Shown piece by piece: positions 960 to 62,543 of a stretch of 64,000 nucleotides of DNA. The position numbers and the translations under genes were made by a program. The DNA is from Cyanidioschyzon merolae (Eukaryota): the NCBI GenBank assembly GCA_000091205.1, contig AP006484.2, one strand, 5' to 3'. Each line of letters begins with the position of its first letter. Position 1 is the stretch's first letter. Below the pieces are notes generated by a model. It was given only the letters and a program-made list of their open reading frames with translations, did not search any database and was not told the DNA's origin.

Positions 960-3350
960 CCTCTTCTGGAGCGACTGCTCTATATGGGCCACTTGCATGT
1001 GCTATGCAATCGTAGCAAAGTACAGTTTTTGCTTCAATGGCGTTTCGGTCTTCAAGTAAGAGTATTCAACTGGTTCTCGCCGTTCGAAACAGAAGCGTCC
1101 AATGAGTTTTTCTCAAAAAAAAAAGTTAGAGTTATGTAATTGTTGATAGTAGGTTTTGGTTGGTCTTTGTTGCCGGATGAAGGAAACGAAACGAGACATA
1201 GTGCCTAGCGAAGACGATCAGGAATGAAGAAGAAGCAAAAGGGGAGACCTTTTGTCGATAGCTGCAATAGTGCCGTCTAGACGACGAGATGGATGTAGAA
1301 TCCTGTCGTTTCCAACATATCAATGACCGGTTTGGCTGAATTTTGCGAGACGCTATCAGAAACAATATCGATTCGTACGCCAGGTATCTTTGTAACTTTT
1401 CTCCCTAAGTCTGAAGCATTTGGAGAGCGACCTGCTTTGCGACGTAACGCACATCGCAAAAGTGATGTTTCCGGAAGTATTTTTTCAAAAGACTTTCATA
1501 ACCCACCTGAATTGTTCTACTGGGGATACATAGAGGAGAAATGAGCGTGTGCATCCCTTCTTCCAAAATTACGCCAAGTACCTCGTCAGCGGTGCTGGAC
1601 ACAAGGGTGACGCAGAATTTTAGGAATACAGGGCAACGATATGCCCCACGAATATGAGGAACCATAAGATCGTAAACATCGATTCTTTAATGATACGCGT
1701 CGTCATTGCGCTGGATCCGGGCCTGTTTCGCGAAGGGATGCGGGCAATCATCGATGGTACCAAGAACAATCGCTTGCATAAACCGGAAATCATATTCGTC
1801 GACAAGAGGTCATCACGGAGGAGAAAGAATGGGGTTTGTGTTATCCGCGCCTCTGTTCTAAACCATCGTTCGATCTTGGGGCTTGTCAACCCAAGAGGAA
1901 AGCTCTCAGATGTAATCAAAAAAGACGAAGTGAGATGTTACTCACTCATTCTGCCCTACTTCATGGTTTTGGACAGAGTACTCGAACGCGAGGCCGAAAT
2001 GGAGCCAACTGTGGAAAAAATGACGGATGGGAGAATCGACATTGATGTGCTTCTCCAGATGCGCTTCATTGTCGTCCAGTTATTCGAGTTCGAGTCACAT
2101 TTTCTGTATATCGACGTTAGAGTCCTTTACGCCTTTATGACAAAGATTTGTCCAGAGCTCGATATTAGCAACGAAGAGGTCACCGGCAAGACCGGACACA
2201 TACTGGAAAAATGTTTTCTATTTCAAGCGTAAGAAACCGGCCAAAAAAAGGTACCACGGGTGCGATCGATAACGATGGGTTATACATACATTGACAATAT
2301 CAGCGGTTGCAGGCACTTCGTCCTATCCCGTCTTCGTTATCGCCATTGCCGAACCACGAAAACAAGAAGAAAGGACACGGGACGTATATCCCCCACGAAA
2401 ACGGCTTTCTCGTCGGCCTTAACCCCTGGAAGAAGGATATCATTACCATCGCTGTACCCAAGCGTGCGGATGATAGTACTGGAGGAAACTTACGTCAGAA
2501 AGAGATGCGTCTGTTTAGGTTTTCGAGGGTGAGATACTACCGATAGTCGGGTATAATGAATGAGAGGAAGGATTTTGAGGCGTGGAACGCAGAAGTGCAA
2601 GAGAACCTTGAGGCTATTAGCTAGGTAACGAGCCGAGGAGCGGACTTACAAGCTTCTTGGGAGTTCCTGGAAGTTCGTGTTGCTCATTGCGTGGCGCTGT
2701 AGGCGGAGTATCCAAATGCCCGGTGGGTTCGTCTACGTATGAATCTATACTGTGAGCATCAGCGTGCGCTAGCGAACTTTTTCAATCAGTTGAGAGCCTT
2801 GAAAAAGGCCGAAAGTCATAGGTGCGTAGTAGCATACGGAACAAGGCGCTGGAAGAACCAAAAAGGAATTACGCCGGCTCCAACGACAAGAACATACAAG
2901 GAGTGCGCAAGGCGTTTCGTCACGATACATGTAGATGAGTTCCGAACCTCGTAGACACACCATGAACTGGGGTGTACATTTCAAAGGGTCGAGATGGAAA
3001 AGTGCCAGCGGAGGCCTGAGGATAGAAAAAAGAACGGACCGCTGACAGACGAGCAAATGGAAAGGAGGTCAAAAGTTCGTGGATTGCGTGCGTTAGTAAG
3101 TACAACCAGTGACGGCAAGAGACGGATGGAGTTCGTGAATCGTGATTTTAACGCCGCTATCAATATAAGCAGATGAGCGGTGCTGGAGAAGAGACCTCCA
3201 GCGTTGACACGAGAGAACTTTGTTGGACAACCTCTCAAAGTCGAACTATATCAGAAGAAGTTGGAAGCAGTAGTGGGTGGCCGCTCCAAAAAGACGGGGA
3301 CGTCTGCACATTGGTTAATGACGTCTAGTCTAGGGCGGGCTTCTCGCCAC
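960..3350 (+). mobile_element. Degraded copy of a ~2.4 kb TnpB/Fanzor-like (OMEGA-family) transposable element, copy 1
   Basis: Nucleotide and protein homology to a second copy at 58270-60770 in the same orientation. Shared blocks include tcaagtaaGAGtattc, aacagaagcgt, caaaaaaaaaa, ttgcgagacgctatcagaaac and the 3' block gtgctggagaa...tctcaaagtNgaactatat...gtctgcac...tctcgcca. The internal ORF fragments carry TnpB-like motifs. Confidence 0.6.
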
Positions 3351-3380
3351 TACTGTACACGGTCCGCATCATCCGTGTGA
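1323..3380 (+). pseudogene. TnpB/Fanzor-like RuvC nuclease gene disrupted by stops and frameshifts; ORF fragments 1323-1544, 1654-2232, 2307-2546, 2739-2954, 2994-3176, 3180-3380
   Basis: Translation gives [21 protein letters not shown], where the RuvC-I Asp is replaced by Asn relative to [15 protein letters not shown] in copy 2. VTIHVDEFRTS is followed by an in-frame TAG at the codon where copy 2 has TAC. RDFNAAINISR carries the RuvC-III D-NAA-NI signature and is followed by TGA where copy 2 reads through. Confidence 0.55.
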
Positions 3381-14000: not shown

Positions 14001-16827
14001 CTCCAAGTGCATTTTAGGAGATTGTCCAAGGCCTGTCTCTCACACGCAGGGAATGGACAGCAGTTCACAGCACCGATAGAGGCCGACGGAATATCCATCT
14101 GGATACACTAGGTGAAACCTCCACATCGTATGACAAGAGTGGACACATTTTCCGTCATCTAACAGCATTAACGAGAAGGACCCGGTGGTTGACATGGTTC
14201 CTCGGCTGCCGGGCTCCGAGGCCGTCTTCGTCCATGTAAAGCCAGAACACGGAACCAAAGTCTTGAACGGCGAGCCGATGAACCTGCTCAACTTTTCCAG
14301 CGCTCGGTATCGTCAGGAGTCGGGCACGACGAATGCCACGAAACATACAAAACCAGAGGAAAGACGGCGCATGGACCCAGTTCGACACGCTGAGCACCGA
14401 ATCGAGCACAGGAGGGATTCGTTGTACGCTTCATTCAGAGCGTACATGAGCGTCCGAATGGCTTATGTGGGCGATCTTGAGCAGGAGCATATGCGACCGT
14501 GCAGCGTTCGCCGGCGATTTCGCTTGCGCGGAGCCAAGAAGCTCGTATTCGCCATCTTGTTTCATGAATCAAGCAACAAAATGACTCATACGTCGCATCG
14601 TTTCATGGTGGTATCCAGTGGCACTGGACACGCTGTGGCGCGCAGAGGCTGCACGCCGGCTACTTCGACGAGAACGTGTATCGAGTGCAGGAGGCGGTTC
14701 CGAGCGATTCCCGTAGGAGCGTTCAAGAAGCCATCCATGCATCACGAGCACGCGTGCCCACTGGAACGTATAGCAACGAGGTGCTTGAAACAGGGATGGA
14801 TGCACGAGCTGGTGTCCGATAAACTGGCTGGTATGTCCGATGGCGGGAAGATCGAATACTGAAGGCCTGCGGTGGTGTGCGTCGACCAACAACCATGCGC
14901 ACAAGCACTCTCTGAACCGAGACTCGAAGTTTCCGATCAACATGCAGGAATGCCTCATGTTGACGGAGCGTCCAGCGGGGTGGTATCGAGTGAGCTATCG
15001 GCGGCAGTGTTGAGTACACGGTATGCGCATTGCGCTGGGACGCTGAACACTTCACTGGACAATCCCTATGTCGCTAGGAGCCAGAGGCGACTGGATTCTC
15101 ATTCCAAGCAAGGTAGAGGTGCAGATACACGCGGCAATTTCGCAAGGCTGGAGCTCTCTATCTCTGCACTGGGAACGGTCTCCTCGGGTGTCTGATAGAT
15201 GATAACGGTATTCCGGCATTCAATAGGAATGCGTATAAGTGTAAAAAGGTTTATATAGTTTTACCACTGAAACAACTGCAAAAGACGCTTTGAGTCCATT
15301 TTCTATACGTTTGCTCACCGGCCTTGGACCCCCGATACACCCGTACCAGAATGAAATGGGGCGATTCCACTCATCGAACTCGGCCTTGCACGCTAATCTT
15401 TGAGTCCCTGCTCACTGTCATCAAGAACTGCCTTTGCAGACGCTTCCAGCATCTGCTTCCCGTCCCCTTCTCTTACCTATGGCTTTAAATGCGCTTCTCC
15501 CTACTTTACCACCATCTCCGTTGTCAGTAGTCTAAGGATGTCGCTGGTAGGACCAAAGCCGCGAATGCACCGCTACCGGCTGACGTCAACGCATGGTACG
15601 CTGAGGCAAATTTGCGATCCACGCCTCCTTTGCAATGTTCATTCTCTTGGTAAACAGATCCAGTACGACCCTCATAGCATTGACACATGATTGTGGTCAG
15701 CTATTCGCATACGTCGACCGCACCTCCGCCGACTTCTCTGAGCGCCGCTCTATACCATTCGAATGTTTGTTTTATCGCTCGGCACACGCCCTTGCCAGGC
15801 AAAAAAAGTCTCGCCTCGATGCCGCAGCCTACGATTGCGGCTCTCTTCTGAGCAATCGCTTTGGCGAGTACGCATTCCAATACATGCGAAAATACATAAA
15901 GTTCCATTTGATAGAGGATTTGTAGAACGCGACGTTGCTCATGGTGAAACAAGTTCTGATGAGAGAATCGAGGCTGGAGCTCACGTCGAGAACGTCGACC
16001 CGTCGACGCTCCCTTCGTGTCCGGCGGTGACGCATTCGCCTCTTGATACGATCGCTGTGCTACCTGAACTCCGAGTCCGGGTCTGTTTTCCGTGGAAGCA
16101 GAAGAAACGGGAGCTTCTGGTACCATATCCAAAGAGAAGCGTCACGCTGCTGTCGTGAAAAGCAGAATCATCGGGTACCACAAAGATAGGCGGATTTATG
16201 ATCCAAATGAAATCGAGTATTTGAGGCACCGTATTCGGTGAACGTTCGCCATGAATTTGCGAATATTTCCTCTGGGGACGATCCTCGAGAATCACTCTTC
16301 ATTGATCCCGTGGGCGCGCACTGCTATGCCGTCCAGGTGCCCTAAAAGAGAAGAATCAAAAAACTCAATGAATGCGCGACTTGAGCATGCTACACGTAGG
16401 GAAAGGAGAACAAATAAGGATTGTACTCATGAGTTGCATGATGGTTTCGGTTACTTTACGAACTCGTGTTCGAATCCGTCGAGATTCGTTTTGAATCGTG
16501 TGACGTGACGAGCACCAGCGGCAAAATGTCGAAACCATCCTTCTAAGAAGCCTATCGAGAATCCCATTACGAATTATGAAAGCGTAGGCCCGTCACAAAA
16601 GCGCTTGAAGTGTCGAGGCTACACACCTTGACCCATACTTGAAACAAAACGCAAGGCCGTATCAGACTGGCCAGTTCAGCGTCGCATGCCCGTCGGACTC
16701 GCGTGTCGCTAGTCGCAGTACCGGTCGCACGCCTCGTGCCAGGTTTCTGCGATACTAAGGCTCCAAGTCAGCAACAAAACAACCGGATTGTCGCGTTTAG
16801 CGTCCAACTGGAGAAAGCAACCGATCT

Positions 16828-53782: not shown

Positions 53783-54096
53783 ACGCGCCATTGAGGCGCG
53801 CGCGCGATGTGCATCACGGATCGAGAAAGAAGCGGGTCGACGCCCGCTGTGGTACGGCAACGCCGCTCTGTTTCCGTGCAGCATCCGCACCGGCGCCTGA
53901 GGCGCCATGGCGGTCAATCAGGACAGGCACCCGGCACACGATAGAACGTATGAAACGACCAGAATATCCGAGAAGAAGTAAAGGTAATGGAATTTGGAAT
54001 CAGGGCGTGGATCGACGGATGCTTCACCGTGCACTGAAGAATACAAACAAAAGAAAAAGAGAGAAAAGTGCTCGATTAGAGAACGCTGGCCTATTT

Positions 54097-54665
54097 TTCA
54101 GATGACAAATCGTTTACATTGACCATGGATCGCAGCATTCGGAATGGAGAATGGCTTTCGGGAAAGCGTCCATCATGAAGCACCTCCCTTCAAGTTCCAT
54201 TACCAGTACTTCTTCTTATCAGATATACAGGTCGTTTCGTATGTTGTGTCGTGCGCCGAGCCTGCCGAAAGCGACAGCAATAGCGCATATACCGCTGAAG
54301 CAGGTGCGACACGGAGACAGAACGGCTTTGCCATTACCAATGAAAGCGTCGACTCGAGGCGTGGTTCCTCCGACATAGGGTCGGAGCACATAGTAATTCT
54401 GGGAGCCTGCAAGCTGCCCAGACGGACGTGCAACCTGCGACAGCGCGAAGCGATATACTAGGAGTCCGCTGCGACCAGGGCGACGCCCGGGCGCAGCATA
54501 ACTGCGCTTATTCCCGGAAGGAACTGTGTTGAGGACGAGCTGTTCATGTCTCGCCACAGCACCCGCCACTGGGGGAGCACGAAGCACGAGCCCGGGACAC
54601 TCGTCCGGCTCGCGGGGCCTTCTACCTAGAAGGTAAACTTTCGAAGATACGGGAACTTTTCACCG
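54097..54665. repeat. Left arm of a large near-perfect inverted repeat (about 569 bp)
   Basis: The reverse complement of 55435-56005 matches 54097-54665 with 1-2 mismatches, for example ttcagatgacaaaTcgtttacattgaccatggatcgcagcattcgg. ORF pairs 54144-54461(+)/55641-55958(-) and 54219-54587(-)/55515-55883(+) are identical mirror images apart from one H/Y change. Confidence 0.95.
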
Positions 54666-55434
54666 TTCCAACGCTCATTATCAAGGTCAAAAGAAACTGT
54701 TATCTAGTTGCTGGTCAGTGTTTAGTTTCTGTTCTTTCTTCCCTAGGAGAATGCTCTCTGCTCGCGGCCTGGCACAACTGGAGGGCCCACCAGTCCGAGG
54801 ACTAGCCTTTGTTGCCGCTGTTTCTATGCAAAGCTCTGCCGCGCGCGCTCCTTCTCTCTTTCTCTCTCTACATTCTCCTGTCCGCGCCCTTGGCCAAAAC
54901 TCTGAAAAGATATCGCTCGCGTCACTCGTGTTCCTATGTAGGGTATATAGATACGCACTCACAGACGCCTCCGGGCCTTTCCTTGACGGGCCGCGTGCTA
55001 CCGGATTCAGCTTCTCCTCGTACACTACGAGCCTGTCATCGTTTTCTGCTGCTGCCTCCGGCCCTCCGTTCGTTGCGGCCAAGGTCCCTGTCATGGGCTT
55101 CCTTCCCCGTCGCTCGAACACCCCGAGTGAACCCACTTTCAGAGCTTCGCCGAAACAACTAGACCTCTCAGACGGGGGTGGTGTGTGTGGGGCTTTAAGA
55201 TACTTGCTCTTTAGTACACAGTCTGTGGCTAGTTTGTTTTGTTGTTTTTTTCTTTTGTGTTTGGGCAGGTGTCTCCGTCTTGATTGGCTGCGTATCGATG
55301 AATATCACGCGTCGTGTCTCATGCCTGCCTGATCTCCCAGGCGCGCTCACCAAGCGAACTATAGAATCACGTACAGAGACTCATGACTAACGCGCAACGA
55401 TATGAAAATTTCCCCCTCTGAGCTAAACGTTAAA

Positions 55435-56005
55435 AAGAGGAAAAGCTTCCCGTATTTCAGAAAGTTTACCTTCTAGGTAGAAGGCCCCGCGAGCCGGACG
55501 AGTGTCCCGGGCTCGTGCTTCGTGCTCCCCCAGTGGCGGGTGCTGTGGCGAGACATGAACAGCTCGTCCTCAACACAGTTCCTTCCGGGAATAAGCGCAG
55601 TTATGCTGCGCCCGGGCGTCGCCCTGGTCGCAGTGGACTCCTAGTATATCGCTTCGCGCTGTCGCAGGTTGCACGTCCGTCTGGGCAGCTTGCAGGCTCC
55701 CAGAATTACTATGTACTCCGACCCTATGTCGGAGGAACCACGCCTCGAGTCGACGCTTTCATTGGTAATGGCAAAGCCGTTCTGTCTCCGTGTCGCACCT
55801 GCTTCAGCGGTATATGCGCTATTGCTGTCGCTTTCGGCAGGCTCGGCGCACGACACAACATACGAAACGACCTGTATATCTGATAAGAAGAAGTACTGGT
55901 AATGGAACTTGAAGGGAGGTGCTTCATGATGGACGCTTTCCCGAAAGCCATTCTCCATTCCGAATGCTGCGATCCATGGTCAATGTAAACGTTTTGTCAT
56001 CTGAA
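55435..56005. repeat. Right arm of the large inverted repeat (about 571 bp)
   Basis: See the left arm. The outer boundary falls at gtcatctgaa, after which the flank diverges to ataatcagg. The inner boundary falls near gaagcttttcc. Confidence 0.95.
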
Positions 56006-56210
56006 TAATCAGGTGCGCATCGGACACGTGCCTGTCACCTGTCCGCGCGCCGCAACGCCGGATCCGGATGCAGCGATACACGTCGCATAACCCGAGATGC
56101 GGGCGCTTATGCATCACTGCATACACGCATGACGGGCGTCCATGTAACACCGAACGCGCCTTTTTGTTCATTGTCTAGACGAGTTAAAAGGTTGATTATC
56201 CTGTGAATTG

Positions 56211-57158: not shown

Positions 57159-58269
57159 TGTCTACCAGGAATGACTGCGAACGGATCTGCCCTTTCCTGT
57201 ACAGGTATACTAGCGTCACGATTCAGACATCCGGATCGGTACTGTTGGGTTTTTTGTGTACGATTTTTGTCTAACCATTCCCCAGTCCATTACTCTGTGT
57301 ACGTGCTCATCATCTATAAAAGATCGCGTAGCGATGATTCAAACACAATCGGATAGGGCGAGCAGCCACAGCTCGGACCTGAACTCGGGGAGCGTTTTCA
57401 TGACGTATCGCGTACAGGCAGTCGCAGGTTTCGGGTCGACGATGAGATCGCAGCGCCGCAGCACCAGCGTCGGCACACCATTACGAAAACGGTGCTCGCA
57501 TCCACCGAAGCTTTCATGAAGGAACAGTGCGTCGCGGACGTCGTCGTTGCATGGCCTTTGGTGGAGTGCGTGCGCTTCAAGGTGTCAACGCGGCTGCCTT
57601 GTAAGCAACAAGCGCGCCCTATGCAGACGTTTGTGGGTACCTCAACTGCATCATGAGGTACACACAGCGACAGCCCTACTCCTGGGCGTTCGAACAGCCC
57701 ATACGACGTCGCCCGGTGGTGAACAGTAGTATATGCTTATCTTGGGTGTCCAGATTTGGCAGCGCACGTACCCGAATTCACTACAATTGCGAATGGATGC
57801 CCACGAGATATCGAGCCTAACGTAAGCATTTGGTCTTCATCATGCGAGAGTGATGCGTGGGACGAGAAGCTCCAGCTCGCATAGATGATGCTGATGCCGC
57901 ATTTTTCGTGCATAGAGCTCCTGTCCTGAGCGGATTCCTGCGAATACCGCAGCCCCCAGTTCAGTGTTTCCCCTCGGACCAGAGCTTTATTGGATCTAGC
58001 GATCCGCCCAGTGGCTCGTCCGCTGCGCACGACTCGAGGAGGCGGGGCGCTGTTTTGCTTTATACGGTTTTGCAATGATAAACCTAACGACGGATCCCTC
58101 TGATGCACCACAATTACCGGAATGAGGACGTATTTGCCTGCAGAGTGTCGGACACGTGTCCATCATCGATCGGAGTAGCGTCTCGCGCGGTGCACGCATT
58201 GCGCACCGTAAGCGCGCCTGGGAGATCGGGCAGTCAACTGACGCGACGCGCGTGCCGTTGTTGAAGGGA

Positions 58270-60770
58270 AATGGGATCCTGATCAGGAGCGTGTAGCTCT
58301 CTTTTAAAAGTTGTATTTCCGTTAACTTGCTAGGCAAGTGTAGTTTTTCAGCTCACTCGTGTTTCAAACCTCAAGTAAAAATATTCGATTGGGGTTTACC
58401 GGTTTATAACAGAAGCGTTCAAAAGCGTTTTTTTTCCAAAAAAAAAACTAAAAAAGGAAAGCTATGAAAAAAGTTGACGATCTTGGAGGCCCAGTGTCGC
58501 TGGCTGCCAGAAAAAAAAACAAAAACCAGTGCCGAGTACAGAAGAAAAGGAAGAGGAAAAGAAGCAAACAATTTAGAGGGCCTACGTCGTAGGCAGCAAG
58601 AAAGACGCCTGTACGACGAGACGGTGGTGAAAGTCTGTTTTCTTGAACATGACTAGGATCCGTACGATGAAAAGTTGCGAGACGCTATCAGAAACCATGT
58701 CGACTCGTTCGCCAAGAGTATTGTCAAGGCGTCGTCAGGATTGGTGCATTTGGCGAGGGAGATGCATTGCAACGTGACGCACATGGAAACGGTCGAGATT
58801 CCGAATGAGTTCTTCGATAAGACCTTTACTCGTCACCTGATGCTTGGTACAGAGGAAACGCGGAAGGAAAATGAGCTGGTGCAAATCCTCCACGAAAAAC
58901 ATCCCCTTTACAGCTTCAATGGTACTCGATACTAGGCTTACCGGGATATTTATCCATATGGGCCCATGAAGTACCCCACGAATCTGAAGGACCATTTGAC
59001 GGTGAACCTCGAACGTTTCATGATACGTGCCGTGGTTACACTCTACCTGGGCCTATCTCGCAATGGAAAATGGGCGATTATCAATGGCGTCACGAACGAC
59101 CGCAAGCGTGAAGATGAGGTCGAATTTGTCGACAAGAAGACATCACGCAGGAGCACGAATGAAGCTTCTGGAATCCGTGCGGTTACAGAAGAGCACCGTG
59201 CGGTACTGGGGTTGGTTCATCCAACAGACAAGATATCAGAGTTGAAAAAAGACAAGGAAAGATACTATCGCCTCGTCCTGCGATATTTCGTGTTTTTGGA
59301 CCGAGAACTCGAACACAAGGTGGAGATGAAGCTGAATGGCGAAAAATGAAGAGTGGGAGAGACCGAAGGCTTTCCTAAAGGGGAAGCGCTTAAACGTGGT
59401 TCCAATGTGCAACATCAGGTCACATTTCGTGACTATCGACTCCAGAATCCTTTACGGCATCATGAAAGGGATCAGTACCGTGTTCAATGTTAGCAGGGAA
59501 TACTTCACCGGCGAAAACCGGGAGACGTACTGGAAGAATATCTTCGATTTCAAACGCCTGAGAGTGAGCAAGCAGAAATTGTTCACTGGGATGATCGAAA
59601 GCGATGGAGTAGCCTTGTGTGTACACGATCGGCGGTTGAAGACAAATCGTCCAGTTCCGCCCTCGGTCTCGCCCGTGCCGAAGCGTGAAGAAAAGGAGGC
59701 GGATCCTGTGACGCAGGAGGTGGAGGATAACGACCTTGTCGTTGATGCGGTGAAGCATGAAGAAAACAAGCAGGCGGATCCTGAGACGCAGAAAGTGCAT
59801 AACAACGACTTTGTCGTTGGCGCGGACCCCGGAAACACAAATATCATAACCATCGCAGTACCCAAACGTGCGGAGGATTGTACTGACGGTAACTTACGTC
59901 AGAAAGACATACGTATTTTTAAGTTCTAAAGATAGAGGCATTACCGAGAATCCGGTATAATAAATGCGAAGAAGAAAATCGGGACATGGAATGCAGGAGT
60001 CAAAGAGCACCTTGAAGCTTTGAGCGAGGTGACGAGCCGCGGAATAGACTTTCAAACTTTTCGGGAGTTCATGAAAGTTCTCGTTCCTCATTGGTAGGCG
60101 CTGTGGGAGGCGTATACAAAGCCCCGGTGGGCTCGTCTGCGTATGAACGTTTACTGCGGGAAACAGCGTGCATTCGCGAACTTTTTCAATGAGTTGAGTG
60201 CCTTCACAGATGATGAAAGTCACAGGCTCGTAGTAGCGTACGGAGCAGGGCGCTGGGCGTCGAGAACAGGTACTACGCCAGTTCCGTCAACAAGAACGTA
60301 CAAGGAGTGCGCGAGGCATTTTGCCGCAATGCCTGTACATGTGTTCCGAACATCGTATACACACCACGACTTGGAGTGCACACTTCTGAAAGTCGAGGTG
60401 GAAAAGTGCCAGCGGAGCCCGGAGGATATCAAATTGTACGGACCGCTGAAGGAAGAGCAAATGGAAAGCAGGGCAAAACTTCGAGAGCTACTTGCGCTTG
60501 TGTGCACAACCAATGATGGCAAGAAACGTATAAAATTCCTGTATCGCGACTTTAAGGCCGCTATCAATATGAGGACATGTGCAGTGCTGGAGAACAGAGC
60601 TCCGGAATGGACAGGAGGGAATTTGTGGGGCAACATCTCAAAGTGGAACTATATGAGAAACAATTGGAACCATTCGTACGTGACCGGTCGAGGATAACTG
60701 GGAAGCGTCTGCACCTCAGTGGATGACCTCGTGTCTGGGGCGCGTCACTCGCCAATATTCTACTCCGCTG
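58270..60770 (+). mobile_element. TnpB/Fanzor-like (OMEGA-family) transposable element, copy 2 (about 2.5 kb)
   Basis: Homologous to the element at 960-3350 from the 5' block (tcaagtaaaaatattcgattgg...aacagaagcgttcaaaagcgttttttttccaaaaaaaaaac) through to the 3' block ending ...gtctgcacctcagtggatgacctcgtgtctggggcgcgtcactcgcca. Estimated nucleotide identity between copies is about 65-75 %. Confidence 0.65.
58675..60697 (+). CDS. TnpB/Fanzor-like RuvC-family nuclease, coding capacity spread over 4 ORFs in different frames (58675-58935, 58966-59349, 59336-59929, 60143-60697). The gaps may be short introns or frameshifts
   Basis: RuvC-I reads [22 protein letters not shown]. The canonical RuvC-II region [12 protein letters not shown] lacks a Glu. 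The TS-zinc-finger region reads [14 protein letters not shown]...EKCQRSPED. RuvC-III reads RDFKAAINM, followed by a 45-aa C-terminal tail. There is paralogy to the copy-1 fragments, for example [36 protein letters not shown] versus LGLVNPRGKLSDVIKKDEVRCYSLILPYFMVLDRVLE. Confidence 0.55.
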
Positions 60771-60815
60771 GCGGCAGCGTTTTTCTTCTGAAAGGCGTTT
60801 GTTGTTGCTGGCGAT

Positions 60816-62543
60816 ATGCTCAGGTGGTCCGGATCTCAACAGGTAACCGACCGGAACCGAGCCGAACAGCATGGCCTGGTCGTGGCGTTCGCTTTTCCTG
60901 CTCGAGCACCGCGCCACAGCGAAGCAACACACGAGCGCTGGACTGGGCTGGCGCAGCGCGAACGCGGCTTGTGTGTACCGTTGAAAGCGACCAAGTGGAA
61001 ACGAGACTTGTGGCACTCGCGAAAGCTTCAAATGCAGGAGCCTGCACAGCGGAACAGAGAGCAGGTGCAAGCGCTAGTAGTAGGCTCTGGAGTGACTGGC
61101 TCTTCGTTCGCGTTCCTGCTGCAGCACGCTGGAATAAGCGATGTGATTTGCACCGAGGCACGAGGTGAAGTTGGTGGAAACCTTATTTCGCGTTCCAAAG
61201 ACGGCTACCTTTGGGAAGAAGGGCCCAACACCTTCCAACCAACACCGGTGATTCTGAAACTCGCGCGAGACGCGGGTCTCGAGTCCGAGCTTGTCTTCGC
61301 CGACGCCAAACTCCCTCGATACGTATACTGGGAGGGGGTTTTGCACGCGCTCCCGAGTTCGCCTGCAGACCTGATCACCGGCCGTTTCCGCCTGTTATCG
61401 AATGCGGGGAAGGCTCGGGCAGCGCTCGGAGCGCTCGGGTTCGTAGGCGCACCCAAACGCGTCGCACGGCAAGCTGGACCCGAGCCCAGCGAGGATGCTG
61501 ACCTAGCAGACGAGTCTGTAGAGGAATTCGTGACTCGCCATCTAGGCCGCGAAGTTTTCCTGAAGATTATAGACCCCTTCGTGAGCGGTGTGTATGCAGG
61601 CGATCCCAGCAAACTCTCCATGGCTGCAGCTTTCAAGCGCGTGTACGCACTCGAGCAGCTTGGCGGAACACGCGGGATTCTCGAAGGGGCGCTCATCCGT
61701 CTGCAACAACGTCGACGGGAACGTCAACGCTGGGCGGCAGAGAATCTCCCCAAGGTGAAAGCGGGTGCACTGGGCTCCTTCCGCGAGGGCCTGCAGCAGT
61801 TGCCGCTCACAGTGGCGACTCGGCTGGGCCCTGAGCGAATGCGAACTCGGTATGCACTGCGCCAAATTGAATACAATGGAGCAAAACGTGGAAAACGTCG
61901 CTATACTGCCCGCTTCGAAACCCCAGATGGCGAACGAGTTATCGAAACAGATGCCCTCATTCTTACGATCCCCGCACATGCGGCGTCACCGCTCTTGCAA
62001 GGTCTGGGTGTCTCTGGGAGTGAGCTGCTCCAGGAAATCGACTTTCCGCCGGTATACTCGGTAACTTTGGCATACCCAAAGTTTGCAGCGCGGTTTCCCC
62101 TAAACGGTTTCGGGAACCTGATACCGCGCTCTGCCGGTATTCGCACCCTCGGGATGGTCTGGTCGTCGAGTTTGTTTCCGGAACGAGCGCCTCCCGATAT
62201 GAATATGGTGCTCTCATACATCGGCGGTGCGCGTGATCCTGGTATCCGCGAATGCACCCCGGATGAAGTCGCTGCCCTCGTAGACGCGGACATGCGTCGC
62301 GTCCTCCTACGTGCCGATGCACCTTCGCCGCAAGTTCTTGGTGTGAGACTTTGGCCGCGGGCGATTCCACAATACAACCGGGGTCACTTGCGGCGCTTGG
62401 AAGCCTGCAACCAGGGTCTACAAGGCTTTCCTGGTCTCTTTTTAGGCGGAAACTATCTGAGTGGCGTTTCCTTCGGTGACTGCGTACAGTGGGCGTACGA
62501 TAATGTGCCTCGAGTGCTGACGTTTCTGCAGGAGACGGCTTGA
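60816..62543 (+). CDS. PPOX: Protoporphyrinogen IX oxidase (PPOX/HemY), FAD-dependent, with an N-terminal extension
   Basis: The FAD dinucleotide-binding fold reads VVGSGVTGSSFAFLLQHAG...VICTEARGEVGGNLISRSKDGYLWEEGPNTFQP. The C-terminus reads ...LFLGGNYLSGVSFGDCVQ. The ATG at 60816 is genuine, but the conserved domain starts about 75 aa later; an alternative ATG at 61032 gives MQEPAQ... Confidence 0.8.
   Translation: MLRWSGSQQVTDRNRAEQHGLVVAFAFPARAPRHSEATHERWTGLAQRERGLCVPLKATKWKRDLWHSRKLQMQEPAQRNREQVQALVVGSGVTGSSFAFLLQHAGISDVICTEARGEVGGNLISRSKDGYLWEEGPNTFQPTPVILKLARDAGLESELVFADAKLPRYVYWEGVLHALPSSPADLITGRFRLLSNAGKARAALGALGFVGAPKRVARQAGPEPSEDADLADESVEEFVTRHLGREVFLKIIDPFVSGVYAGDPSKLSMAAAFKRVYALEQLGGTRGILEGALIRLQQRRRERQRWAAENLPKVKAGALGSFREGLQQLPLTVATRLGPERMRTRYALRQIEYNGAKRGKRRYTARFETPDGERVIETDALILTIPAHAASPLLQGLGVSGSELLQEIDFPPVYSVTLAYPKFAARFPLNGFGNLIPRSAGIRTLGMVWSSSLFPERAPPDMNMVLSYIGGARDPGIRECTPDEVAALVDADMRRVLLRADAPSPQVLGVRLWPRAIPQYNRGHLRRLEACNQGLQGFPGLFLGGNYLSGVSFGDCVQWAYDNVPRVLTFLQETA

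Follow-up and report, generated by a model that had tools for sequence, protein, structure and literature searches.

The DNA analysed here, a window of 64,000 nt from Cyanidioschyzon merolae 10D, a thermo-acidophilic model alga with a 16.5-Mb genome, contains two mobile elements and two related relics, and no tRNAs. Both elements belong, as decayed copies, to the Fanzor1 transposon family CMe-1A; the Fanzor1 gene sits in a eukaryotic nuclear genome, inside a multicopy mobile element with a single ORF (Table 1). Four proteins encoded in the window are identical to nuclear proteins of C. merolae 10D. CMe-1A was described in C. merolae as a family of ~150 copies, ~80% identical to their consensus and ~3 kb long, with neither terminal inverted repeats, detectable target-site duplications nor a transposase gene, and with its 5′ 635 bp identical to TE-N2_CMe; it was left unclassified (Bao & Jurka 2013, Mob DNA 4:12; PMC3627910). 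The window elements come from the same genome, fall in the size class of 2.4-3.4 kb, occur in many copies ~65-85% alike and likewise lack terminal inverted repeats; their 5′ part of ~635-700 bp corresponds to TE-N2_CMe, an upstream unit that our analysis also recovered independently, and they encode a Fanzor1-like protein. Their identity with CMe-1A, drawn from the published description rather than from the Repbase consensus, is uncontradicted. The 2013 description predates omega RNAs, does not contain the 3′ hairpin module reported below and gives one 5′ region, as opposed to at least three in metagenomic relatives.

Table 1. Coordinates of the two CMe-1A copies and their 3′ features in the window
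Feature	Position	Strand	Basis or remark
Copy 1, entire	960..3380	+	left limit approximate
Copy 1 RuvC-III codons (NRDFNAAINI)	3141..3167	+	translation; aligns with 'NRDxNAAxNI' in solved Fanzor1 proteins
Copy 1 TGA, nonsense mutation of ancestral TGT (Cys)	3174..3176	+	family consensus TGT
Copy 1 remaining 51 C-terminal codons of the decayed Fanzor1 ORF (AVLEKRPPALTRENFVGQPLKVELYQKKLEAVVGGRSKKTG...)	3177..3330	+	frame of the upstream ORF
Copy 1 ancestral stop TAG (3331-3333) and hairpin 1 (UAGGGCGGG-CUU-CUCGCC.CUA)	3331..3352	+	consensus translation, fold
Copy 1 conserved unpaired motif CCACTACTGTACAC	3347..3360	+	columns 80-89% conserved, 48 copies
Copy 1 third version of the second hairpin (ACACGG-N10-CCGUGU)	3357..3380	+	alignment rows, folds
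Copy 2, entire	58140..60813	+	~320 nt 5′ non-coding, decayed ORF, right-end module
Copy 2 RuvC-III codons (60545-60571) and C-terminal coding tail	60545..60735	+	alignment, translation
Copy 2 ancestral stop site (TAG to TGG) and hairpin 1 (GGCG-N7-CGCC)	60736..60753	+	
Copy 2 degenerate unpaired motif (CCAATATTCTACTCC)	60752..60766	+	family alignment
Copy 2 terminal stem-loop	60766..60813	+	fold

The proteins of both copies are damaged beyond the 3′ lesions discussed below. Copy 1 has diverged much further in its N-terminal half and has lost the RuvC-I Asp (GLNPWKKD). Copy 2 opens with a non-coding part that begins with the palindrome GGACACGTGTCC at 58150-58161 and leads to the ORF start codon at 58464; its catalytic Glu is gone (VHVFRTS). 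Neither copy can be a working system, because both proteins are inactivated and copy 1 has in addition lost the terminal stem-loop of its right end. A full-length intact ORF was found in none of the 81 related loci, and metagenome contigs hold 439 related stretches.

The preliminary description had recognized a TnpB-type nuclease of the Fanzor kind, and the family profile bears this out. Searches of Pfam and the PDB with the repaired C-terminal protein as a single sequence or with its close family, as well as shallow profiles, gave no match; the Fanzor1 structures were reached only by a profile that takes in relatives at 30-45% identity. This profile of 56 relatives, the family included, matched PpFz1 (9cf0) with E = 3.3e-19, SpuFz1 (8gkh) with E = 3.2e-12 and GtFz1 (9cer) with E = 4.2e-6, in alignments that span the RuvC-I, RuvC-II and RuvC-III motifs and the RPxxLxR that follows. 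The split D...E...D triad of RuvC is present in the family consensus and aligns with the corresponding Fanzor1 motifs. Between RuvC-II and RuvC-III, the Cys pattern of the zinc-ribbon region is degenerate in CMe-1A, and PF07282 (Cas12f1-like TNB) matches two of ten distant relatives, below the Pfam cut-off. An AlphaFold2 model of P0004, computed with a 23-sequence family alignment, reached a pLDDT of 31 and is unusable.

The two copies share a conserved stretch at 3180-3350 and 60586-60757, confirmed here with an identity of 0.747 over 170 aligned bases and E = 2e-41 in a BLAST comparison of the tails, and all four shared blocks quoted in the preliminary description are present. There the stretch was placed downstream of the nuclease stop and its conservation ascribed to RNA constraint. 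The TGA of copy 1, however, is a nonsense mutation. TGT (Cys) stands at this position in 40 of 42 family copies, the equivalent codon of copy 2 (60578-60580) is TGT, and the family proteins read through it as 'IRRCAVLE'. The same frame continues in family members for 52 further codons up to a stop at 3331-3333, and the consensus of 28 copies yields a single restored ORF that ends at TAG; this ancestral stop is intact in copy 1, and its equivalent in copy 2 (60736-60738) is mutated to TGG.

The codon pattern agrees with this reading frame. Positions 1, 2 and 3 of the tail codons are identical between the copies at 0.83, 0.80 and 0.62, which is the signature of a protein and resembles the 0.79, 0.83 and 0.66 of the upstream ORF; overall, the tail is as similar between the copies as the 780 nt of ORF ahead of it (0.76 identity). 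Within the tail, entropy is in excess at third positions (p = 0.009); third-position entropy is somewhat lower in the tail (0.67) than upstream (0.80). The start of the tail (RPPxLTR) carries the motif RPxxLxR, common to the solved Fanzor1 structures, and aligns to PpFz1 and SpuFz1. Relatives keep a homologous C-terminal tail at 35-45% identity, and a relic at 10006-9758 in the window retains it with 42% amino-acid identity. Alignment folding found no consistent or consensus RNA structure inside 3180-3330.

To judge from frame, codon pattern and homology, ~150 of the 170 nt belong to the C-terminal coding part of a Fanzor1 pseudogene and are not non-coding DNA. In copy 1 the change of TGT to TGA severed the tail codons from their frame; in copy 2 a 1-nt deletion near 60620 did so by shifting the frame, and a tblastn search with the consensus tail finds copy 2 at 60613-60720 in the shifted frame with 67% identity; the pairwise alignment also shows a 2-nt deletion in the tail of copy 1 near 3300. 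The similarity of the copies probably reflects shared descent together with past selection on the protein in master copies. The apparent non-coding conservation arose from taking a premature pseudogene stop for the true one.

The true non-coding right end is the ~78 nt from the ancestral stop on, at 60736-60813 in copy 2. Its extent was estimated in an alignment of 48 copies and its structure in 42 non-redundant copies. The family remains alignable for ~85-95 nt past the stop, with an entropy of 0.755 in this post-stop region; beyond it, conservation collapses (entropy 1.83; 48 copies). In the 42 copies the module contains a short hairpin together with the motif CCACTACTGTACAC; it also has a terminal hairpin, which comes in two mutually exclusive versions. 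The short hairpin (hairpin 1) overlaps the stop codon, and its GGCG/CGCC stem is present in nearly all copies and invariant; next comes the unpaired motif CCACUACUGUACAC, then the terminal stem-loop, and after it a G/U-rich strand that is able to pair back.

In copy 2 the core of the terminal stem-loop, AGCGUUUUUC-UUCU-GAAAGGCGUU at 60776-60799, is lengthened where CGCUGGCGGCAG pairs with UUGUUGCUGGCG, the G/T-rich end at 60800-60813. Across 60750-60810 the similarity of copy 2 to the 81 loci falls off, and the consensus right end is an exact match to 60794-60811. The right end of copy 2 therefore lies near 60811-60813, and any guide would start near 60814. Copy 1 differs in this region: it shares a third version of the second hairpin with one other locus (L012), its similarity to the family ends at ~3380, and the usual terminal hairpin and the G/T-rich end are absent.

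The complete divergence of the flanks at 3350 and 60770, previously taken as the element end, consequently has another origin, namely that the two copies carry different right-end versions; copy 2 matches the family to ~60811-60813 and copy 1 to ~3380. Both that boundary and the guide positions predicted just outside 3350 and 60770 are in copy 2 off by ~45 nt, and they have no assignable counterpart in copy 1. What stands of the earlier proposal is that a structured, conserved non-coding right end exists where Fanzor1 omega RNAs are encoded, although only the last ~20 nt of the interval originally delimited, hairpin 1 at 3331-3352, belong to it.

The unpaired motif pairs better with the 24 nt after the terminal hairpin than with the far flank (p = 0.006), but it pairs with its own copy no better than with mismatched copies. 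This pairing is not copy-specific and hence a family feature; it indicates that the G/T-rich stretch belongs to the element and provides no evidence of covariation. In one composite element the right end persists without the ORF as a solo module, together with ~35 nt of the ORF end; on the basis of this one event, the last ~35 nt of the ORF may be part of the module. Of two loci from distant relatives that were inspected for a comparable 3′ module, one is on a contig that breaks off 32 nt past the gene, and the other shows nothing recognizable.

These data allow us to weigh the reading in which the whole ~170 nt after 3176 are a non-coding omega-RNA scaffold with a right end at 3350/60770. The omega RNAs of TnpB and GtFz1 do overlap the ORF 3′ end, in GtFz1 by 17 codons (Saito et al. 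2023, PMC10432273), and both the ORF remnant kept by the solo module and the lower third-position entropy in the tail would suit such an RNA. Yet the supposed stop arose by nonsense mutation, the tail is homologous at the protein level and has the codon-position pattern of a protein, consensus structure is lacking in 3180-3330, and the family alignment runs ~45-60 nt past 3350/60770, so that this reading is very improbable. We instead consider it likely that the two loci are jointly explained as the 3′ end of a dead CMe-1A Fanzor1 gene followed by a right end of ~78 nt, a putative omega-RNA scaffold.

Folding of the module was assessed on per-sequence folds and on a cleaner sub-alignment instead of the whole alignment. 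RNAalifold on all 351 columns returned only eight trivial pairs, because loop indels and the coexistence of two hairpin versions disrupt the alignment, and alifold on the first-version group failed for the same reason. At least 36 of the 42 copies are predicted to form the terminal hairpin, with a mean z of -1.5 against dinucleotide shuffles, in counts that are not independent because the copies are kin. The two versions of this hairpin, whose positions were paired by hand from two consensus sequences, differ at 8 of 25 positions and are shifted by 3 in pairing register. Each version forms 10 bp and chimeras of them do not; random derivatives with eight substitutions were as stable in 1.1% of trials. 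Alifold on the 16 copies that carry the second version, the one present in copy 2, gave z = -8.4 for these kin sequences. Folding favours the sense over the antisense strand in 39 of 42 copies, an asymmetry that the G+T-richness of the former could partly explain. Compensatory events within one hairpin version number only two, and hairpin 1, its stem being invariant, gives no covariation. Rfam returned no matches at gathering thresholds in the window and none at E <= 10 for 60300-60900.

The preliminary description had proposed to compare the tail with synonymous sites. In that comparison the non-coding part, at 0.755, shows no less entropy than third codon positions (0.67-0.80), contrary to the constraint it had assumed, and descent alone explains the sequence similarity of the module. 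The post-stop region could in principle be an mRNA 3′ UTR or neutral sequence, similar by descent, with hairpins that serve at most in mRNA 3′-end formation; besides the entropy, the thin covariation within hairpin versions, the near-empty whole-alignment RNAalifold result and the terminator-like succession of a hairpin and a U-rich stretch accord with this. It does not readily account for two mutually exclusive 10-bp hairpins at one place despite their 8/25 differences (~1% chance), for the third version in copy 1 and L012, for the alifold z-score or for a module that outlasts the ORF in one composite element. We regard this explanation as improbable.

A further possibility concerns the DNA itself. 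The right-end hairpins might be cis-acting transposition signals that a trans-acting transposase recognizes on the single-stranded top strand, as in a Helitron-type or other HUH rolling-circle 3′ hairpin or an IS200/IS605-type end, and not, or not only, an RNA scaffold. The absence from CMe-1A of terminal inverted repeats, detectable target-site duplications and a transposase gene of its own favours such an end, as does the contrast between a uniform 3′ end and 5′ ends that carry at least three extensions unrelated to one another. With a subterminal hairpin and 10-15 nt after it, the end is similar to those of HUH transposons, the TE-N2-like unit begins with TC directly after a T (..T/TC), and some right ends, in few copies only, read CTGG and then T. 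Rep transposons in general have hairpins at one end or both, and in Chlamydomonas Fanzors are carried by Helitrons (PMC10288648). Against this, the CTRR-like ending is confined to a minority of copies and thus not a consistent terminus, neither the element nor the loci examined showed a Rep/helicase or Y1 gene, and CMe-1A was left without a class by Bao & Jurka, who know Helitrons well. Moreover, the sense-only, G-U-rich pairing fits RNA at least as well as DNA. A DNA signal in place of, or besides, a scaffold therefore appears unlikely to us, and the two roles are not exclusive.

At the left ends, no counterpart of the right-end hairpin exists across the family, and the right-end HMM gave no left-end matches. 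A candidate terminal inverted repeat, a 12-nt match in copy 1 (1078-1089) to the reverse complement of a hairpin arm, is absent from the family left-end alignment and was discarded as chance. The left flank of TE-N2-type copies recurrently reads GCTGAT(T), which is suggestive only, the left ends being heterogeneous. Searches for empty sites with PPOX, the 954-aa ORF and a 90%-cluster relative of PPOX yielded none; the contigs with the flanking genes all carry the insertion or break inside it.

In IS200/IS605 elements the omega RNA overlaps the right-end DNA hairpin. Membership of CMe-1A in that group was rejected, as the element has a single ORF, no TnpA Y1 HUH transposase and no left-end hairpin. 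If the candidate holds, CMe-1A would resemble ISDra2 in that the 3′ part of the nuclease gene and the right end jointly supply the guide RNA and the flank provides the guide. It is set apart by its eukaryotic host, by the missing TnpA Y1 and left-end hairpin and by the position of the scaffold, which in ISDra2 overlaps a long 3′ coding stretch of tnpB whereas the CMe-1A candidate lies almost wholly after the stop.

A further parallel is with Fanzor1 systems of solved structure. In SpuFz1 and PpFz1 the omega RNA runs from stem-loop 1 through stem-loop 2 to the guide (Xu et al. 2024, PMC11423790), and CMe-1A is alike in layout: a putative scaffold of ~75 nt with two stem-loops and a variable flank directly after it. 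Differences exist in detail. The 30-nt inverted repeats of SpuFz1 elements have no equivalent in CMe-1A, and stem-loop 1 is 7 bp in the solved complexes, compared with an invariant 4-bp core in hairpin 1 of CMe-1A that is extendable to 6+3 bp with a bulge. On the sense strand, a conserved candidate scaffold lies downstream of the nuclease ORF and reaches up to the right end, with variable sequence beyond. The stop-to-end layout of two stem-loops, like that of the SpuFz1 and PpFz1 omega RNAs, makes it plausible that the right-end module is an omega-RNA scaffold.

By analogy with these systems, the module would, in active members, be cut from the sense transcript as the scaffold, which may take in the last ~35 nt of the ORF, and 14-20 nt of flanking DNA just past the module would guide the Fanzor1 nuclease. 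The fuller proposal, that the ~78-nt module, possibly extended by the final ~35 nt of the ORF, serves a red-algal Fanzor1 as omega RNA, with a hairpin remodelled at least twice while its shape was kept, we put forward tentatively, as a possibility just short of probable. A literature search found, among the papers covered, none describing an RNA for the C. merolae Fanzor.

The corrected 3′ map of CMe-1A, with its true stop, the two-hairpin module of ~78 nt and a copy 2 right end near 60813, locates where in small-RNA data a Fanzor1 guide RNA, and its guide of ~20 nt, would be. If such an RNA is found, a red-algal, heat- and acid-adapted member would join the few Fanzor1 systems with a defined omega RNA. 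If the proposal is true, C. merolae has a native and so far undescribed RNA-guided nuclease system.

The preliminary description took 3180-3350 of copy 1, one of two decayed Fanzor1 elements in the window, for a candidate omega RNA scaffold downstream of the nuclease stop codon. About 150 of these 170 nt are codons. The copy 1 frame runs through ...NRDFNAAINISR into a TGA and on in the same frame as AVLEKRPPALTRENFVGQPLKVELYQKKLEAVVGGRSKKTG...; copy 2 carries TGT (Cys) at the position of this TGA, loses its frame by a 1-nt deletion near 60620, and has 36 residues more that are readable in the shifted frame. With the repaired C-terminal half as query we retrieved 233 related proteins, among which the complete ones share a common C-terminal ending beyond the copy 1 TGA, and the majority consensus of 28 genomic copies is a single ORF of ~760 amino acids with that same ending. 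These two results place the ancestral stop at a TAG, mutated to TGG in copy 2; judging from the reading frames, the TGA is not the gene's own stop.

Between the two window copies, identity at codon positions 1, 2 and 3 is 0.83, 0.80 and 0.62 in the tail, and 0.79, 0.83 and 0.66 in the upstream RuvC half. Across 42 non-redundant copies, the corresponding column entropies are 0.52, 0.47 and 0.67 in the tail (permutation p = 0.009 for the third-position excess) and 0.36, 0.34 and 0.80 in the upstream ORF. The homologous C-terminus, NRDLNAAINIRRC....RP..L.R....L....G+.I+*, is kept in relatives at only 30-45% identity, and its RPxxLxR motif after RuvC-III coincides with the start of the supposed scaffold. 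By this substitution pattern the tail evolves as protein, and the finding as originally written was a misread pseudogene tail.

Conservation of the stretch between the copies was confirmed: identity is 0.747 over 170 bases (3180-3350 versus 60586-60757), the tail finds the second copy by BLAST at E = 2e-41, and the four sequence blocks quoted previously all occur in the alignment of both copies, which are 60-83% identical along its length. This conservation is real, yet not above that of the gene upstream (0.76 over the 780 nt of ORF preceding the tail). Several stops and frameshifts interrupt both copies, and the RuvC-I Asp is lost in copy 1 and the RuvC-II Glu in copy 2; both are dead and the system is non-functional in the window. 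None of the 81 related loci retrieved holds a full-length intact ORF, the longest being 564 amino acids.

Coordinates of the elements, stop codons and associated features
Feature	Position	Description
Copy 1	roughly 960-3380	~2.4-2.7 kb repeat
Copy 2	roughly 58140-60813	~2.4-2.7 kb repeat
In-frame TGA, copy 1	3174-3176	
Ancestral stop, copy 1	3331-3333	TAG
Its counterpart, copy 2	60736-60738	TGG
Annotated ATG of BAM78848.1	60816	3 nt from copy 2 right end (interval 60813-60818)
5' non-coding sequence, copy 2	about 58140-58463	~320 nt
Palindrome, copy 2	58150-58161	12 nt
Tandem repeats	59687-59825; also P0001-P0016 (family proteins)	75 nt (25 aa), EADPATQEVxDNDxVV, just upstream of RuvC-I; 1 to ~6 among family members
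Foldback	54093-56009	two inverted TE-N2_CMe-like units; arms 54093-54660 and 55442-56009
Foldback, inner part	55035-55243	matches 5' extension of another CMe-1A subfamily
Foldback, inner end of right arm	55308-55350	matches common left part of CMe-1A (58208-58250)
TE-N2-type left termini	54093, 56009; e.g. L039:1167, L056:1165, L005:182	
Fanzor1-like relic (+)	14152-14998	older; 35% amino-acid identity to family consensus
Fanzor1-like relic (-)	10006-9758	older; 42% amino-acid identity; RuvC-III and C-terminal tail; no recognisable right-end module after it
Solo modules	L031:1049-1122 (= L037:1048-1121), L072:1034-1110	last ~35 nt of ORF and post-stop part
Gene of P0123	L089:435-1343	brine metagenome

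Four window ORFs are identical to C. merolae 10D proteins (BAM78848.1, protoporphyrinogen oxidase; BAM78839.1; BAM78845.1; BAM78833.1). Pfam and PDB searches with the element family's sequences alone gave no match. Among 1.84 billion representatives, a profile search detected 1457 relatives, and a profile built from 56 of them matched solved Fanzor1 structures from three species: Parasitella parasitica (9cf0, E = 3.3e-19), Spizellomyces punctatus (8gkh, E = 3.2e-12) and Guillardia theta (9cer, E = 4.2e-6). All three RuvC motifs and RPxxLxR lie within the alignments. In the C. merolae genome, Bao & Jurka 2013 described the Fanzor1 family CMe-1A, with ~150 copies of ~3 kb that are ~80% identical to their consensus, lack both terminal inverted repeats and determinable target-site duplications, and have a 5' 635 bp identical to another element, TE-N2_CMe (PMC3627910). 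Independently of that work we found a 650-700-bp unit directly upstream of many family copies; in the window it also forms a foldback, whose 568-nt arms are 98% complementary and hence of recent arrangement. The window elements are identified as CMe-1A by genome, architecture and protein class. The gene of the closest relative outside the family, protein P0123 (43% identity), directly follows a DDE_3 transposase gene of the Tc1/mariner type, the classical Fanzor1 association, which is absent from CMe-1A.

The 5' non-coding sequence upstream of the ATG is conserved in the family and may be a promoter or leader; in copy 2 it starts with the perfect palindrome GGACACGTGTCC (CACGTG core) and has an A9-10 run within. 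Further upstream, family members carry one of at least three unrelated 5' extensions. GCTG or GCTGAT(T) is frequent at the end of the flanks preceding the TE-N2-type left terminus, TTTTTC(A)GATGACAAAACGTTTACATTGAC, and GCTG is seen again at the fading right ends (..TTGTTGCTG|G..), possibly as a target motif or as a short direct repeat.

Downstream of the ancestral stop lies a non-coding right-end module of ~78 nt. When 48 non-redundant 3' ends are aligned, they stay conserved for ~85-95 nt past the stop, after which conservation collapses (entropy 0.755 in the module versus 1.83 in the flank), the consensus being GGGCGGGTTTCTCGCCACTACTGTACACCGC(CGG)CGTCGTTCGACTTTCGAACGGCGTTTGTTGTTG(CTGGTG). 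The right end had been set at 3350 and 60770, where the two copies diverge completely. The family is alignable further, in copy 2 to 60811-60813, ~45 nt past 60770, and in copy 1 to near 3380: copy 1 tracks the family through the first hairpin and the CCACTACTGTACAC motif, its next hairpin is a rarer version common to locus L012, and the usual terminal hairpin is absent. What makes the copies part at 3350/60770 is a difference in right-end version and not the end of the element. Next to copy 2, either BAM78848.1 has been annotated with too long an N-terminus or the element abuts the start of the gene.

Single-sequence folding predicts two elements in nearly all copies: a hairpin overlapping the stop codon (UAGGGCGGG-UUU-CUCGCC.CUA), with a stem invariant across copies, and a 10-14-bp terminal hairpin, which is predicted in no fewer than 36 of the 42 copies. 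The terminal hairpin region has a mean z of -1.5 against dinucleotide shuffles (16/42 copies below -2), and 74 of its 404 pairs are G-U; in 39/42 copies folding is more stable on the sense than on the antisense strand (Wilcoxon p = 5e-8), although G+T-rich composition itself favours sense folding. Two versions of this hairpin, CGUCGUUCGA-CUU-UCGAACGGCG and AACGUUUUUC-UUUU-GAAAGACGUU, differ at 8 of 25 homologous positions with the pairing register offset by three, as compared by hand from consensus sequences. Both form 10 bp, at -13.2 and -9.8 kcal/mol, which chimeras of the two (-5.5 and -3.3 kcal/mol) do not; of random derivatives of the first version with 8 substitutions, only 1.1% equal the second in stability. 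In the 16 second-version copies, RNAalifold recovered both hairpins (z = -8.4 versus column shuffles) and no consistent structure in the coding tail. Compensatory events within one version number only two, in copies whose relation by descent makes such counts non-independent. Downstream of the hairpin, a G/T-rich stretch of ~15 nt can fold back and pair with the CUGUACACCGC region, better than the far flank does (p = 0.006) but not better than in mismatched copies; the pairing is therefore a family feature, and these ~15 nt are part of the element.

Conservation had also been read as a sign of RNA constraint, with synonymous sites of the ORF as the yardstick. The module is not conserved above third codon positions, and by that yardstick the level of conservation alone is no evidence of RNA constraint. 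A purely neutral 3' UTR would agree with that level but is at odds with the remodelled hairpins.

A function for the module suggests itself by analogy. Structures of the SpuFz1 and PpFz1 complexes show two stem-loops as the scaffold, with the guide immediately after them (PMC11423790), and in place, size and layout the CMe-1A module matches these omega RNAs; that of GtFz1 overlaps the last 17 codons (PMC10432273). We put the chances that the module is an omega RNA in active family members at about even. A composite element in loci L031/L037 and L072 contains the module without the gene; these solo modules are not preceded by Fanzor coding sequence, and a full copy follows ~740 nt downstream. 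There is a resemblance to the SpuFz1 'ghost loci', but the composite elements are 81% identical over 1.1 kb and so represent a single evolutionary event. The ORF end kept in the solo module may point to a functional unit that begins a little within the ORF, and only in that sense would 3180-3350 overlap a scaffold.

Alternatively, a trans-acting transposase may recognise the hairpin as a DNA signal, given a family without terminal inverted repeats, target-site duplications or a transposase, whose 3' end is uniform and 5' ends are heterogeneous; HUH transposon ends typically bear hairpins, and Fanzors ride Helitrons in Chlamydomonas. A CTRR-like terminus, however, occurs in only few copies and a Rep gene was not seen, and a DNA signal and an RNA role are not mutually exclusive. 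Rfam held no matching family, and our literature search found no paper linking a C. merolae Fanzor with an RNA. The family and the Fanzor1 protein that it encodes became known in 2013, and omega RNAs of Fanzor1 nucleases in 2023; the corrected right-end module would be at most one more case of a known type.
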